From the UHGV virus genome UHGV-0129084: a DNA stretch of 53,693 nucleotides, one strand, 5' to 3'. The notes below the pieces were generated by a model. That model was not told the origin of the DNA. It searched no databases and worked only from the letters and a program-made list of their open reading frames with translations. Below are positions 26,366 through 29,884 of this stretch, piece by piece (position 1 is the first letter of the stretch; every line of letters begins with the position of its first letter). This DNA is from a virus. The position numbers were made by a program, and so were the translations under genes.

Positions 26366-29300
26366 TCACGACTTAATAGTTTCTGCTACGTCGGCTAATA
26401 TCGCTTCTAGTCGTTCTCCCTCTTCAGGTCTGAAGTAAAGAATGTTGGGGTTAAACCCGTAAAAGACAGTAACGTCAAGGTCTGGAAGATACTCCTTCCT
26501 GCCGACCAAATCGGATGGCTTGTTTTTGTTGTTAAACAATGAAGTTGCCCGGCTGCCACACGTCAGCACATAGGTCGGACGCACCAGATTGATCTCTTCA
26601 CGCATAAAGTCGGTGAACTGGCCGATCTCGTCTTTGGTGTAGTCTTTTTCTTTGTCTTTAACCTTCTTGCAAACACCTGTGACATAGAGATCGCCCATGC
26701 GTAAATCTCCAGCCGTCAATAGCTTGGCCTTAAAGTCGTCGTATCCGTTCTCCATAAAGTAACCGGTTCGAGCATCATTGCCGTTCGCATTGTCCAGAAT
26801 GATCATGATTTTCGGCTTAATACCAATGCTGGGGCGGATTAGTTCATCACCTAAGCCCATTTCAGCCGCCATCCGCGTCATGAGTACGTTAATTTCAGCC
26901 GAACGTTTGGGGTTCATCTCAAACGGACGTGAGGCTTTAACTGCGTCTATGACAAGGTTTCCCATCAATTCAGCTTGGTCGCGTAGGCGCTCTGGATCAG
27001 TTGCTGGCAGACTGCCTGGCTCGATGGATGCAAACGCCCCTACTTTTTGCAGCGATTCGCGCACTCGACTATTACAGGCACGTTTCTCGACAGCTTCTTC
27101 GAATTGCGCCAGTGACTCGAATTTGCCGCCAACTTTTTCTCGCGCTCTCATGATGGCTTGGCAGCCATTCTCAGAACACCCTTTCACAGCAGAGAAGGGC
27201 GCATACAGCACCTGGCTGCCATCTTCAAGCGTGCGGATCTCGATTCGGTTAGATGACACGTTAACGTCTGGTGGCAATACGCGAATACCATAGGTCAGCG
27301 CATCTTTAACCAGCCCCTGGTGTTTATCTTCGCCAAGAATAGTGAGAGCAGCAGCGAAGAACTCCGCGGGATAATGAGTTTTCAACCACATAGATTGATA
27401 ACTGATTAAGGAGTAAGCAACAGAGTGTGATTTGTTGAACTGGTAGGCACCATTCTTTTCGAATGCGGTCCAGATCTCCTTCGCTTTCATCTCTGATAGC
27501 CCTGGATGTGACGCTGTAACGCGTACTGCGTTTATAGGTAGTTTTGCGCCGTACTCAAGTGCCTCTTCGACAGTTTTCAGAGTTCCGTCTTCGCATTTAA
27601 AATGTTCCGCACGGTGAATGCGCTGTGTAGTGCCATCTTCCAGCTCAACGTCTATCCAGCCAGCTTGAGCCTGAACGATGAACTTCTCGCCCATGCTCTT
27701 CATTTTTTCCATGTCTTTTTTGCCGATCGCTTTACGAACGCCGTCAGCTTCAGCCATTGTGAAGCCAGCAAGCAATCGAGTCGCGTTCATCGTCTGTTCC
27801 TGATAGAGAATCACGCCATTTGTTTCTGCGGTAAGTTCATCAAGAACGGGGTGTAATGATTCCGGCGTCATAAAGCCTTTGGCTACAGAAACATAGTCAT
27901 CCAACATGCCTGACTGAATTGGCCCCGGCCGGAAGAGTGCAGTCGTAGCAACAACCGTTTTAAAGCTCATTGGCTCAATTCCACCACCTAAATCTTTAAG
28001 CAGCTTGCGCATTGGGCCTGATTCAAGCTGGAAAACACCTTGAGTGTACCCAGCAGCAAAACCATCCAGCACCTTGCGATCTTCAAGAGAAATGGCATCA
28101 AGATTGATATCTTCACCTGTGTTCTCTTTTATGTAGCGTTTTGCACTATCGAGCAAATCGAGAGTTGCCAGACCAAGTACGTCCAGCTTAATTAGGCCCA
28201 TAGCCTCGCAGTAACGCTTGTCAAATGCGATACAACGCGCGTCACCACGGCGTTCAACCGGTGTACGTTCTGTCAGAGGAACACCTGCTACGATCATCCC
28301 TGCCGCATGTCTACCAAAGCCACGCATAAGGCTTTGTAACTTGCAGGCTGCATTGAATGCATCAGGATATTTTGTTGCGTATTTGTCGAGACTTGCCAGT
28401 TGTTCGCGCAACTCTTCCAATGGAAGGCTATCATCCTCGACGTTCTTCAGTTCTTTTGATACCGCCATATCTGCGGACTCCACACCATAAATACGAGCGG
28501 TGTCACGTAGTGCAGAGGCTGCGCCCAGGTAGGTGAAGTTCGGAATGCCTGCAACGTAATCTTCGCCGTAGCGTTCATTCAGATACTCGATCACCTCATG
28601 GCGACGTGCCTGGCTGAAGTCCAAGTCCGCATCCGGCAAGTCGAGACGCTCAGGGTTGATGAAACGCTCAAACAGAAGACCGTGACGGATTGGGTCGACG
28701 TTGGTTATGCCTATGCACCACGCCACCAGAGAACCGGCAGAGGAACCACGACCAGGCCCAACGGGAATGCCAGTTTCACGACTATGATTCATCAGATCGC
28801 GCACCATCAGGAAGTAACCACAGAATCCCAGGCGAGTCAGCGTGTCCATTTCGTACTTTAGCCGCTCAACATAAACCCTGTTCTCAGAAGCAGGTGGTGT
28901 GTATCCAAACTCTTTTGTGGTAAGACGTTTACGCAGCCCTGCAACAGCCAGTTTCATCAGCGTTGCAGGTTCGTCGTCTGCCATCTTGGGCAGTGCTGGT
29001 GGCAATTCATGCCAGCGCCATGTGCAGGCATCGATAATGGAGTCCTGCGTTGTTGAGGCCATTGCAGCTGTTACCGGCACATCCATGCGAACGGAGAAGG
29101 CTTTAAGCGCCTCAAGGAGATGGCGACGACCATTGATGGCGTTATCTCGCTGGTGGGGGATACGCAGACGATGCGGCTGGTCGATTTTGATGTTGTTCGT
29201 AACCATGTGCGCAATGTCTTTAATGTCTGCATCGTCGATCGATTCGTAATAAGCGGGATAGAACGCCACTGGCTCTATTTTCAATGCGCTGGCGACTTTC

Positions 29301-29884
29301 ATCGCCCGGACGTTAATCTGGTCGTAGAATGGGGTAGGGTGCGGATAAACCACACTATAGAAGCTGTCTTTTCCACCCGCTGTAATCAGTGTGCTTATGA
29401 TTTTTGCAAAATCGTTGCGTTGGAACACGCTACCGATGTCGGAAGTAAGCAGGATGATGTTGCCTTTGGCATATGTAGAAACCAACTGTTCGAGCGAGAG
29501 ACGCGGTACAAAGTAGAACTGTTCTCGTGTGTTGGCCGCCGTCATTAGTTCGCAGATGTCGCGATATCCTTTCTCATTTTTAATTAGAGCGGTAAACGAG
29601 TAGTTACGTCCTCGCTCTAATGATTCCATACATCTCATAGATTCTTTAGCAAGTTTAGCCCGGTGCTCGTATGTGGGATCATCAACAATGTTTAGTTTCA
29701 CACCACAAATAACCGCCATGTCGTCACCAGCGGCACGTTGTAGTGGAATAACGCTCGCAATATTCATGCTATCTGCTGAAATTACAGCGGTGTAGCCAGC
29801 TTCTCTGGCAATCTTCACCGCGTTTTCTGCTTTTAGAGCCGACTCCCCAAGTGAGAAGTCAGTTCGAACCATCAGTGCCTTCAT
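26366..29884 (-). CDS. DNA polymerase III alpha-like (DnaE-type, family C) replicative polymerase
   Basis: 1172 aa; GYFLMVRDLMNH...GIPVGPGRGSSAGSLVAWCIGITNVDPI...LFERFINPER matches the DnaE palm/fingers core; N-terminal PHP region lacks the canonical His-x-His metal motif. Confidence 0.9.
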   Translation of the reverse strand: MKALMVRTDFSLGESALKAENAVKIAREAGYTAVISADSMNIASVIPLQRAAGDDMAVICGVKLNIVDDPTYEHRAKLAKESMRCMESLERGRNYSFTALIKNEKGYRDICELMTAANTREQFYFVPRLSLEQLVSTYAKGNIILLTSDIGSVFQRNDFAKIISTLITAGGKDSFYSVVYPHPTPFYDQINVRAMKVASALKIEPVAFYPAYYESIDDADIKDIAHMVTNNIKIDQPHRLRIPHQRDNAINGRRHLLEALKAFSVRMDVPVTAAMASTTQDSIIDACTWRWHELPPALPKMADDEPATLMKLAVAGLRKRLTTKEFGYTPPASENRVYVERLKYEMDTLTRLGFCGYFLMVRDLMNHSRETGIPVGPGRGSSAGSLVAWCIGITNVDPIRHGLLFERFINPERLDLPDADLDFSQARRHEVIEYLNERYGEDYVAGIPNFTYLGAASALRDTARIYGVESADMAVSKELKNVEDDSLPLEELREQLASLDKYATKYPDAFNAACKLQSLMRGFGRHAAGMIVAGVPLTERTPVERRGDARCIAFDKRYCEAMGLIKLDVLGLATLDLLDSAKRYIKENTGEDINLDAISLEDRKVLDGFAAGYTQGVFQLESGPMRKLLKDLGGGIEPMSFKTVVATTALFRPGPIQSGMLDDYVSVAKGFMTPESLHPVLDELTAETNGVILYQEQTMNATRLLAGFTMAEADGVRKAIGKKDMEKMKSMGEKFIVQAQAGWIDVELEDGTTQRIHRAEHFKCEDGTLKTVEEALEYGAKLPINAVRVTASHPGLSEMKAKEIWTAFEKNGAYQFNKSHSVAYSLISYQSMWLKTHYPAEFFAAALTILGEDKHQGLVKDALTYGIRVLPPDVNVSSNRIEIRTLEDGSQVLYAPFSAVKGCSENGCQAIMRAREKVGGKFESLAQFEEAVEKRACNSRVRESLQKVGAFASIEPGSLPATDPERLRDQAELMGNLVIDAVKASRPFEMNPKRSAEINVLMTRMAAEMGLGDELIRPSIGIKPKIMIILDNANGNDARTGYFMENGYDDFKAKLLTAGDLRMGDLYVTGVCKKVKDKEKDYTKDEIGQFTDFMREEINLVRPTYVLTCGSRATSLFNNKNKPSDLVGRKEYLPDLDVTVFYGFNPNILYFRPEEGERLEAILADVAETIKS

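Follow-up and report, generated by a model that had tools for sequence, protein, structure and literature searches.

The open reading frame at positions 26366-29884 (minus strand) of the window, the 53,693-nucleotide stretch of viral DNA analysed here, encodes a DnaE-type family C polymerase with an intact polymerase active site, in which residues ~992-1172 form a family-4 uracil-DNA-glycosylase (UDG) fold in place of the OB and tau-binding domains. This UDG-fold tail is the polymerase's most distinctive feature and was overlooked in an earlier, sequence-only reading of the same DNA. The best explanation for the gene is that it encodes the replicative polymerase of an SSU5-type phage-plasmid and belongs to a distinct, widespread phage DnaE lineage. 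Overall, we favour as fairly probable an account that combines an intact DnaE replicase, a dead PHP domain, a UDG-fold tail acting as a non-canonical DNA-binding or processivity module, and an epsilon-like proofreader working in trans. The 1172-aa product begins with MKALMVRTDFSLGESAL, and its parts, together with the candidate proofreader, are as follows.

29015..29884, minus strand: PHP domain (aa 1-290; Pfam PHP 1.1e-12; pLDDT mostly >90 in the full-length model)
28172..28960, minus strand: palm/thumb core (aa 309-571, with D418, D420 and D568; Pfam DNA_pol3_alpha 1.2e-73)
27665..28165, minus strand: fingers, first part (aa 574-740; Pfam DNA_pol3_finger 2.6e-44)
27521..27661, minus strand: 47-aa beta-rich insert specific to the SSU5 clade (aa 742-788; beta strands 743-793 in the model)
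27020..27520, minus strand: remainder of the fingers and (HhH)2 (aa 789-955; Pfam HHH_6 1.6e-16 at 866-955; aligns to Taq over 789-946)
26954..26995, minus strand: conserved helix DPERLRDQAELMGNL (aa 964-977; family conservation and full-length model)
26369..26911, minus strand: family-4-derived domain with the UDG fold (aa 992-1172; profile, AF2 and Foldseek matches)
3449..4006, minus strand: epsilon-like DEDDh 3'-5' exonuclease of 185 aa, candidate trans-acting proofreader (Pfam RNase_T 6e-22)

The sequence-only reading had assigned the protein to the DnaE-type family C polymerases, and this assignment is borne out by the Pfam core domains, by the TIGR00594 model (NCBIfam; 632 bits, cut-off 434) and by the catalytic Asp triad D418, D420 and D568, which is invariant in all 43 family members. 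The closest solved structures are the Taq, M. tuberculosis and E. coli Pol III alpha subunits (Foldseek against Taq alpha, E 5.6e-60). Domain mapping, which had been proposed as a check, recovered the PHP domain (6-155), the polymerase core (DNA_pol3_alpha 309-571, fingers 574-740) and (HhH)2 (HHH_6 866-955), all above the Pfam cut-offs; no OB or canonical C-terminal domain was matched in the polymerase, the UDG fold taking its place at residues 992-1172. The 47-aa insert is missing from Taq DnaE and from unsplit homologues in other clades. It lies where an HNH homing endonuclease splits the gene in relatives, and shares homology with the tails of the N-halves and the heads of the C-halves in the split polymerase genes.

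Could the gene instead encode an auxiliary, error-prone (DnaE2-like) plasmid-borne polymerase rather than a replicase? The NCBIfam 'error-prone DNA polymerase' model does match at 1.7e-119, the C-terminal tau-binding domain is missing as in DnaE2, and the brief treatment in PMC3919608 lists the protein as an 'additional polymerase' in its hosts. However, DnaE1 models score much higher (2.9e-203), although the DnaE1 equivalog NF004226 (NCBIfam) stays below its cut-off (678 bits, cut-off 1002); no ImuA or ImuB partner was seen; and the gene sits within a helicase-primase-SSB-ligase module that is also kept by phages from four other host genera, nickie among them. We consider the error-prone reading very improbable.

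The PHP domain was compared with M. tuberculosis DnaE1 (5lew), E. coli DnaE and intact-PHP relatives by alignment, and with family frequencies. The His-x-His motif is missing, M5-V6-R7 standing in its place, and the nine metal-ligand equivalents (M5, R7, E14, S39, K63, S96, S148, P210 and Y212) include no identical residue and only one conservative change. The loss is family-wide and has conserved replacements, namely R at H16, T at H48 and R/K at E73. The PHP exonuclease needs all nine ligands, and the D23N and D226N substitutions are each inactive (PMC5636811). Since all nine are lost, the domain, though folded, cannot act as a PHP exonuclease. The domain had earlier been called degenerate from the absence of His-x-His, with an intact active site named as the finding that would count against this; the change extends to every ligand position and goes beyond that description.

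For the C-terminal domain, TIGR00758 (NCBIfam) matched at 1.2e-8 and 34.8 bits, below its cut-off of 125.3, and a family profile matched PDB UDG4 structures at 2.9e-30. The AF2 model (pLDDT 91) found 1l9g by Foldseek with E 2e-11 and TM 0.71/0.78, and 1l9g, 1vk2, 4zbx and 1ui0 together gave E ~1e-11 and TM 0.65-0.78. The pocket, in contrast to the fold, is degenerate: motif A reads LDNAN (canonical GE[AG]PG), motif B reads NPN (canonical HPS), and M1045 and G1071 occupy the F54 and N80 equivalents in Tth numbering. When 40 DnaE-context UDG-domain sequences were mapped to Tth UDGa numbering, the F54 equivalent was M/L/G, Asn at N80 was found in none of the 40, and the H155 equivalent was N/S/T in 39 and His in one. 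In Tth UDGa, H155S alone lowers k2/Km ~2500-fold, N80A ~40-fold and F54A ~17-fold (PMC5387724). Because the Phe, Asn and His of the uracil pocket are lost family-wide, the UDG-derived domain is unlikely to be a canonical uracil glycosylase. It may have some glycosylase activity, given the conserved acidic pocket residues (D1032 in 34/40, D/E1038 in 38/40).

Such activity is central to an alternative in which the domain is an active glycosylase of altered, MUG/TDG-like Asn/Asn chemistry that excises uracil or an aberrant template base ahead of the polymerase. The UDG superfamily is catalytically plastic, and MUG and TDG function with Asn where the motif-B His stands. Here, within the UDG4 fold, Asn occupies the third position of motif A (N1033) and occurs again in motif B (N1146), with D1032, D/E1038, Y1068, T1070, K1074 and P1147 conserved; a precedent exists in the SP15-like family A polymerases, which have an active UDG fused to them, and PGAP labels the C-half of split polymerase genes 'uracil-DNA glycosylase'. 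Yet N1033 occurs in only 3/40 members, the uracil-specific Asn is missing throughout, the stacking Phe is mostly gone, the N/S/T variation at the motif-B position indicates weak constraint for a catalytic residue, and the TIGR00758 score is far from its cut-off. The Fe-S cysteines bear on the same question: the CxxC...C set is retained in many family members (~17/40 keep the C13, C16 and C100 equivalents, and none keeps C84), and residue mapping found 0/4 in the window domain. We regard an active glycosylase as unlikely, and prefer the DNA-binding or processivity module.

The clamp question was addressed by annotation and profile searches only. Pfam or PHROGs scans of 37 window ORFs matched no clamp or clamp-loader family, in agreement with the earlier statement that the window shows no such gene, and none appears in the SSU5 or nickie annotations. 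A highly divergent clamp may be hidden among ~6 conserved hypothetical proteins, or the polymerase may engage the host's beta clamp by way of a non-canonical motif. The second possibility can be put more fully: the polymerase would be clamp-dependent, its conserved R-x-[KR]-D-Q-x-E-L-[LM]-P-G-[LV] segment recruiting host beta that the host loader has loaded, and the UDG-like domain would have another role. This segment is strongly conserved amid an otherwise variable region (R966 in 40/43, Q970 in 38/43, L973 in 35/43), and the known hosts are all Proteobacteria. It loosely resembles Q-x-x-L-[LMF] clamp-binding peptides and follows (HhH)2, roughly as does the internal clamp-binding motif 920-QADMF-924 of E. 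coli alpha, which lies just after (HhH)2 (PMC3201878). On the contrary, MAFFT pairs it with the E. coli helix 'RAALMNSL', upstream of QADMF and not with it, and the family's P-G is replaced by G-N in the window protein. Moreover, clamp-binding motifs bind extended, from flexible regions, whereas residues 964-977 are modelled as a confident alpha-helix (pLDDT ~89-90). In the model, the helix is more likely structural than a clamp-binding motif, and clamp dependence through it appears somewhat unlikely; a polymerase relying on its own UDG-derived module remains our preference.

The 185-aa exonuclease had been proposed to supply proofreading in trans. Its best NCBIfam matches are Pol III epsilon models (1.1e-19), RNase T matched at only 6.6e-5, and no oligoribonuclease model matched in the NCBIfam scan, so the oligoribonuclease-type identity that had been named as the finding against the proposal does not apply. 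Against E. coli epsilon (1j53) it scored 8e-11, and D9, E11, D99, H155 and D160 align to epsilon D12, E14, D103, H162 and D167, these DEDDh residues being invariant in four lineages. In 50,697 phage records, this polymerase occurs in 31 complete genomes, and precisely these supply the 31 top exonuclease matches (39-100% identity), while later matches have identity <=35%. Since the exonuclease co-occurs one-to-one with this polymerase type in 31/31 complete phage genomes, proofreading in trans is plausible. The co-occurrence spans five host-genus groups; it sits in one syntenic, probably monophyletic module, and may reflect shared descent. The epsilon-like character in the earlier proposal stands, with intact DEDDh residues and strict co-occurrence, whereas the protein ends at residue 185 (~ epsilon residue 190), without the C-terminal alpha-binding segment and the clamp-binding motif QTSMAF in the alignment, and the pairing is inferred. 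Epsilon equivalog models gave 67-71 bits (cut-offs 196-223).

These same gaps invite the reading that the exonuclease acts in recombination, repair or nucleotide recycling, and that the polymerase works without proofreading or borrows host epsilon via its PHP domain. The gene lies 22 kb from the polymerase, among the nucleotide-metabolism genes ThyA, RNR, kinase and Dam, and is within 10 kb of the polymerase in 0/80 viral loci; the epsilon tail is missing. One-to-one co-occurrence argues against it, as does epsilon being the closest characterised relative, and the PHP domain is dead throughout the family, so that an external proofreader is needed if genomes of ~110 kb are to keep fidelity. We judge this reading distinctly unlikely, and retain the trans proofreader.

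The polymerase lies in a replication module that is syntenic in SSU5, Pseudomonas phage nickie and 80 viral contigs, whose main members and conserved neighbours in the window are listed here.

23658..24653, minus strand: FEN-type 5'-3' exonuclease (Pfam 5_3_exonuc_N 3.5e-24, 5_3_exonuc 5e-12)
24663..25691, minus strand: gp32-like single-stranded DNA-binding protein (Pfam gp32 1.7e-66; adjoins the polymerase in 70/80 viral loci)
25809..26240, minus strand: conserved 143-aa protein between SSB and polymerase, weakly UvsY-like (phrog_2058 2.9e-69; phrog_231, UvsY-like, 1.1e-4; present in 72/80 viral polymerase loci)
30065..33504, minus strand: CobS-like AAA+ (MoxR-type) protein with its CobT-like VWA partner, conserved neighbours just upstream of the polymerase (Pfam AAA_5, CobT, CobT_C; order kept in nickie; found at 50 and 45, respectively, of the 80 viral loci)
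42624..45227, minus strand: DnaG-like primase and DnaB-like helicase of the replication module (Pfam Toprim_2/DNAG_N, DnaB_C; synteny with nickie and SSU5)

RecA, Rad50/Mre11-like proteins and RNase HI were also found. The T4-style company that the sequence-only reading gave the polymerase is therefore only partly there: gp32 and a weak UvsY-like match are, but the recombinase is of the bacterial RecA type (PF00154, 2.2e-42), the FEN is of Pol I type, and Rad50/Mre11 are generic. Its setting in a large lytic phage does not hold either. Window ORF searches found a Rep3 initiator, an integrase and tail-fibre genes, with ParA known by annotation, identifying an SSU5-like temperate phage-plasmid. 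The polymerase gene, already catalogued and belonging to a common SSU5-type phage-plasmid of E. coli, shares 97-98% nucleotide identity with CMS-2020a and PhiR41_1 and 85% with SSU5; annotated as dnaE, it occurs on 781 plasmids in PLSDB. A survey of 5426 complete E. coli genomes found it in 244, with matches there on plasmids only. About 5% of tailed-phage genomes carry family C polymerases (PMC11348598).

As for how these parts might work together, the co-inherited exonuclease would supply proofreading in trans. Because the epsilon C-terminal tail is missing, it would have to dock on the polymerase otherwise than E. coli epsilon does, and a candidate for the docking element is a conserved G-[FL]-[FY]-x-x-P peptide at the C-terminus. 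In the least certain step, the UDG-derived domain would give the polymerase a built-in module for DNA binding, template guiding or processivity, making up for the lack of an OB domain and for a clamp, clamp loader and clear clamp-binding motif that all seem to be missing. A bolder form, which we put forward tentatively and rather doubt, is that a silent UDG-derived template reader or processivity module frees a family C replicase from OB, tau, the loader and perhaps any clamp, with the dead PHP domain docking the tail-less proofreader in a manner different from that of E. coli epsilon. If true, a UDG fold would have been taken up independently as a replisome accessory in three polymerase families: A (SPO1, T5, SP15-like), B (poxvirus E9-A20-D4) and, as the third, C.

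The DnaE-UDG architecture has been known since 2014, when Timinskas et al. (NAR 42:1393; PMC3919608), in one sentence and a figure entry, gave a PHP-Pol3-(HhH)2-UDG variant of Pol III alpha, 'DnaEX', in which an archaeal-type (family 4) UDG domain stands where OB and C-terminal domains would be; Salmonella enterica and Yersinia pestis have it as an additional polymerase. The passages on 'DnaEX' in that paper mention no phage origin, dead PHP domain or degenerate UDG pocket, and no co-inherited exonuclease or split alleles. The S. enterica and Y. pestis proteins are located on pHCM2/SSU5-type plasmids, the window's own family; the window polymerase shows no difference in kind from 'DnaEX' and is another copy of it. 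Likewise, the SSU5-like phage-plasmids (Salmonella phage SSU5, pHCM2, and Escherichia phages CMS-2020a, PhiR41_1 and Cyrano) have a polymerase gene 85-98% identical at the nucleotide level, the same gene order and Rep3, ParA and integrase genes, and differ in nothing of substance from the window, which is a member of the group.

The E. coli Pol III core resembles the window system in that metal ligands have been lost from its PHP domain and a DEDDh epsilon-type exonuclease is a separate protein, and its catalytic D401, D403 and D555 are the counterparts of D418, D420 and D568. However, E. coli alpha keeps 4/9 PHP ligands (5/9 changed, against 9/9 here) and has both OB and tau-binding domains as well as two motifs for clamp binding, where the window polymerase has the UDG fold instead of OB/tau; E. 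coli epsilon binds alpha through a C-terminal tail and also carries a clamp-binding motif, and the window exonuclease is without the tail. The PHP-exonuclease-proficient M. tuberculosis DnaE1 and Taq alpha hold a trinuclear centre of nine metal-coordinating residues, none of which the window polymerase retains. A T4-type replisome shares the gp32 SSB, but its gp45 clamp and gp44/62 loader have no window match, its gp43 polymerase is family B, and its UvsX is replaced here by a bacterial RecA.

The family 4 UDGs (Tth UDGa, T. maritima TM0511 and S. tokodaii UDG) and UdgX have the fold in common with the window domain (TM ~0.7-0.78), with detectable sequence homology, and the family 4 scaffold residues Y77, T79, K83 and P156 are conserved in the polymerase UDG domains. 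The domain differs from family 4 in its fusion to a polymerase and in its loss of the F54, N80 and H155 equivalents, motifs A and B and the Fe-S cysteines. As polymerase accessories, UDG domains have precedents in SPO1 and T5 PolA and in vaccinia D4 (PMC3201878), and the active fused UDG of SP15-like PolA-UDG reads dU ahead of the fork (preprint 10.1101/2025.03.26.645540). The family A polymerases of SPO1, T5 and SP15/YerA41-like phages and poxvirus E9-A20-D4 thus have a UDG-fold module attached to a replicative polymerase, as here, the module being a proposed processivity factor in SPO1, T5 and vaccinia. Those polymerases are of family A or B with the UDG N-terminal or in trans, whereas the window polymerase is of family C with the UDG fold C-terminal; and D4 and the SP15-like enzymes have an active UDG, whereas the pocket of the window domain is degenerate.

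The sequence-only reading had placed a DnaE-type family C polymerase at 26366-29884, and this identity held: the ORF on the minus strand was confirmed in the window, with a 1172-aa product whose N-terminus is MKALMVRTDFSLGESAL, and Pfam mapped the following domains on it.

Pfam domains of the polymerase (ORF 26366-29884, minus strand)
Residues 6-155: PHP domain
Residues 309-571: Pol III alpha core (1.2e-73)
Residues 574-740: fingers
Residues 866-955: (HhH)2

The last ~210 residues had no match in this domain mapping. The protein passes the NCBIfam superfamily model TIGR00594, falls below all DnaE1 equivalog cut-offs, and has the Pol III alpha subunits of Taq, M. 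tuberculosis and E. coli as its closest solved relatives. The catalytic Asp triad (D418, D420 and D568) is invariant in 43 of 43 relatives. The active site is intact, and the sequence points to an active-looking DnaE-type family C enzyme. A DnaE2-like error-prone auxiliary polymerase was ruled out by the model scores and the gene context.

The PHP domain had been called degenerate, and the loss turned out to be more complete than stated. We mapped the ligand positions by alignment to 5lew, E. coli DnaE and the few relatives whose PHP domain is intact; in M. tuberculosis DnaE1 the ligands include H14, H16, H48, C158 and H228. The nine positions in the polymerase are occupied by M5, R7, E14, S39, K63, S96, S148, P210 and Y212, giving an identity of 0/9 with a single conservative change (Asp to Glu). 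Ligand loss is family-wide and patterned: among 43 family members, the second His is replaced by Arg in 23, H48 by Thr in 25 and the bridging Glu by Arg or Lys in 28. The full-length model predicts this domain to be well folded (pLDDT mostly >90); by computation, the PHP domain is dead yet folded. For comparison, the PHP exonuclease of M. tuberculosis DnaE1, whose ligands include D23, E73, H107 and D226, requires nine metal ligands, and E. coli alpha has lost five of the nine and is inactive as an exonuclease (PMC5636811).

A UDG-like domain at the C-terminus (residues ~992-1172) had been overlooked in the sequence-only reading. The C-terminal 212 residues match TIGR00758 (family-4 UDG, 1.2e-8) and an archaeal UDG model (3.7e-6) in NCBIfam, both below cut-off, and match Pfam UDG weakly. 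A word-indexed homologue search with this region gave six fragments only; phmmer, run exhaustively against 1.84 billion representatives, matched 146 clusters. About 40 of these are proteins of ~1080-1240 aa (a few longer) that match at their extreme C-terminus, many are ~390 aa long, and a few are genuine stand-alone UDG4s. The family profile built from a divergent C-terminal alignment matched solved UDG4 structures at 2.9e-30, a value inflated by the few stand-alone UDG4 sequences in that alignment; the single-sequence NCBIfam match and the fold searches are independent of them. An AF2 model of the domain (pLDDT 91, pTM 0.88) superposes on the UDG4s of T. maritima, S. tokodaii and T. thermophilus and on UdgX (E ~1e-11, TM 0.65-0.78), and the full-length model gives the same UDG matches locally and Pol III alpha for the body. 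Many phage PolA models also match the domain. From the NCBIfam, profile and fold matches, therefore, a UDG fold stands where DnaE1 has its OB and tau-binding domains.

The pocket of Tth UDGa comprises E41, G42, E47, F54, N80 and H155, with N89 positioning the water, and k2/Km falls ~2500-fold in H155S, ~40-fold in N80A and ~17-fold in F54A (PMC5387724). Relative to a Tth UDGa sequence checked against the residue numbers of that paper, the polymerase equivalents are D1032, N1033, D1038, M1045, G1071, E1080 and N1146. Across 40 DnaE-context sequences, Asn is absent from the N80 position (0/40), 39 have N, S or T at the H155 position, and M, L or G predominate at the F54 position; the acidic pocket residues and scaffold Y, T, K and P are conserved. 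The polymerase has no Fe-S cysteines, and ~17 of the 40 relatives retain three. An active MUG-like glycosylase would be one explanation, as the Asn/Asn configuration of the polymerase resembles MUG/TDG. Judged from the family-wide substitutions, we favour a UDG-derived DNA-binding module that is probably non-canonical and possibly non-catalytic. A few distant relatives from the phmmer search (P0124 and P0127, and partly P0104) retain an intact PHP domain, with HxH, DH, E and DxH all present, and carry a C-terminal UDG-like domain without the motif A segment.

No clamp or clamp loader was found in the 37 window ORFs by Pfam, or by PHROGs for the unassigned ones, in agreement with the initial claim, and none is annotated in Salmonella phage SSU5 or Pseudomonas phage nickie; a very divergent clamp might possibly be represented among phrog_2500, phrog_4248 and phrog_2117. 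Alternatively, the polymerase may depend on the host beta clamp. The family has a strongly conserved segment, R966-x-[KR]-D-Q970-x-E-L-[LM]-P-G-[LV] (RDQAELMGNL in the polymerase), which at first sight looks like the counterpart of E. coli QADMF. However, residues 964-977, which span this segment, form a confident helix in the full-length model (pLDDT 89.4, pTM 0.84), and MAFFT aligns the segment with the upstream E. coli helix RAALMNSL, not with 920-QADMF-924, so that it may be a clamp-binding motif but is more likely a structural helix.

The claim of a DnaQ-like exonuclease at 3449-4006 (minus strand) was likewise supported. The best NCBIfam matches of this 185-aa protein are Pol III epsilon models (1.1e-19 and 1.5e-18); the RNase T model reaches only 6.6e-5 and the oligoribonuclease model gives no match, so both of these identities were ruled out. 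Among solved structures, it is closest to E. coli epsilon (8e-11), and D9, E11, D99, H155 and D160 align with the epsilon catalytic residues D12, E14, D103, H162 and D167, all five being invariant in Pseudomonas, Rhizobium and Stenotrophomonas phage orthologues. The protein is a DEDDh exonuclease with an intact catalytic set. Its C-terminus coincides with the end of the epsilon exonuclease domain; unlike E. coli epsilon, it has neither the alpha-binding tail nor the QTSMAF clamp motif. Residues 176-185 (window 3449-3481) contain a G-[FL]-[FY]-x-x-P motif, here GFFKLP, that is kept in four phage lineages and may be the peptide through which the protein docks on the polymerase or on a clamp.

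Among 50,697 phage records, the polymerase C-terminal domain occurs in 32 (31 complete genomes and one 13-kb fragment), and the best 31 exonuclease matches (39-100% identity) fall in exactly those 31 complete genomes, the next matches having ≤35% identity. The exonuclease is thus strictly co-inherited with the polymerase, which supports a functional link. The co-occurrence is not independent evidence, because the 31 genomes share one syntenic module; an exonuclease functionally unrelated to the polymerase would be the competing explanation. Under the functional link, which we prefer, the exonuclease would proofread in trans for the polymerase, presumably docking on it by a mode unlike that of E. 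coli epsilon. Overall, what had been observed from the sequence alone was confirmed, and its interpretation was supported only in part.

The polymerase gene also occurs as split alleles. In 7 of 78 viral contigs, dnaE exists as two parts, an N-half of ~787 aa and a C-half of ~389 aa, and the same is seen in SSU5-like plasmids of E. ludwigii (NZ_CP134668) and E. albertii (CP043247).

Split-dnaE loci
L005, L009, L028, L042, L045, L048, L049
L085, L086

An ORF of ~230-250 aa lies between the halves in five of the seven contigs and in both plasmids; the two checked against Pfam carry HNH_3 and NUMOD, and the E. ludwigii one is annotated as an HNH endonuclease. Homing endonucleases target dnaE in this family. 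PGAP names the C-half 'uracil-DNA glycosylase'. The ~390-aa proteins are real C-terminal halves of HNH-split genes, which rules out gene-calling fragments. The tail of the N-half and the head of the C-half together are homologous to a 47-aa beta-rich insert in the polymerase (residues 742-788; 27521-27661), which unsplit homologues in other clades lack; the insert may be a module for fragment complementation that an unsplit or re-fused allele has retained. In addition, a recurrent class of ~750-830-aa relatives (P0057, P0065, P0069 and P0097) starts at polymerase residue ~372, just before GPGRGS, which hints that the palm domain has another point of splitting or insertion in some relatives.

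The polymerase gene shares 97-98% identity with its counterparts in the Escherichia phages CMS-2020a and PhiR41_1, and 85% with that of SSU5. In PLSDB it is found on 781 plasmids (Klebsiella, Escherichia, Enterobacter, Yersinia and Salmonella). Of 5426 complete E. coli genomes, 244 carry it, invariably on ~110-kb plasmids and annotated dnaE. The window carries a Rep3 initiator, an integrase, ParA and tail-fibre genes. The element is a temperate SSU5-type phage-plasmid; given the plasmid-borne relatives and the Rep3, integrase and ParA genes, the 'large lytic phage' setting was not borne out. As an element it is unremarkable: this enterobacterial phage-plasmid is very common, and its polymerase is annotated in hundreds of records; the carriers are ~110-kb phages and phage-plasmids, some with antibiotic-resistance genes. 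The replication module is syntenic with that of nickie and was seen in 80 viral contigs, found with an alignment of C-terminal halves, many of them from ~100-115-kb genomes.

Order of the replication module
DnaB, DnaG, ligase
CobT-like, CobS-like
DnaE
UvsY-like, gp32-like SSB, FEN, RecA
Mre11/Rad50, RuvC
RNR, ThyA, exonuclease

Of the T4-style partners proposed earlier, gp32 stood, together with a weak UvsY-like match; the rest are not T4-specific, and RecA is of the bacterial type. Several neighbouring genes have features of their own.

Other genes in the window
30065-33504, minus strand: CobS-like AAA+ (MoxR/AAA_5) and CobT-like VWA, directly upstream of the polymerase
22316-23389: RecA, 1074 nt
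6029-7159, minus strand: thymidylate synthase, unusually long (376 aa)
7304-8173: MazG/PRA-PH-like pyrophosphohydrolase
18073-19128, plus strand: Rep3-type (iteron plasmid) initiator

The CobS-like and CobT-like genes occupy the same position in nickie, are present in 50 and 45 of the 80 viral loci, respectively, and are annotated as 'porphyrin biosynthesis' although they lie inside the replication module. RecA is 2340 nt long in the 97%-identical phage PhiR41_1 (L001, 6862-9201), which suggests an intein or other insertion there. The thymidylate synthase matches Pfam in two stretches, suggesting an internal insertion, and its neighbours include the pyrophosphohydrolase, RNR subunits and a kinase; the element therefore has its own control of dTTP and dUTP supply, which bears on any uracil-related role of the UDG-like domain. 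The Rep3 initiator, on the opposite strand amid the minus-strand phage replication module, presumably serves plasmid-state replication by host enzymes, apart from the phage DnaE replisome.

Taken together, the polymerase is a minimal family C replicase, without a working PHP domain, an OB domain, a tau-binding domain or an evident clamp. It would serve lytic-cycle replication inside a phage-built replisome, with the UDG-like domain standing in for the OB domain and clamp by binding DNA, guiding the template or conferring processivity. In the searchable literature, we did not find descriptions of the PHP inactivation throughout the family, the degeneration of the UDG pocket, the split alleles or the strict association with an epsilon-like exonuclease that has no tail. 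The polymerase raises the question of how a degenerate UDG domain functions as part of a family C replicase, and the system lends itself to testing, as SSU5 and its E. coli relatives can be cultured.

Timinskas et al. (2014) describe, from certain strains of Y. pestis and S. enterica, an 'unusual variant' of DnaE with an archaeal-type UDG domain instead of the OB and C-terminal domains (PMC3919608). As described there, the variant belongs to the same protein family as our polymerase, and the object and its architecture were therefore already known. Kazlauskas and Venclovas (2011) had earlier reported that viral family C polymerases diverge after the fingers domain; by comparison with vaccinia D4, they also proposed that the UDG domains of SPO1 and T5 PolA act as built-in processivity factors (PMC3201878). 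More recently, SP15-like PolA was shown to carry a fused, active UDG with which dU is read in front of the fork (2025 preprint, 10.1101/2025.03.26.645540). An understanding of how this replicase attains processivity and fidelity would bring family C into this picture of UDGs as polymerase accessories, which so far covers families A and B.
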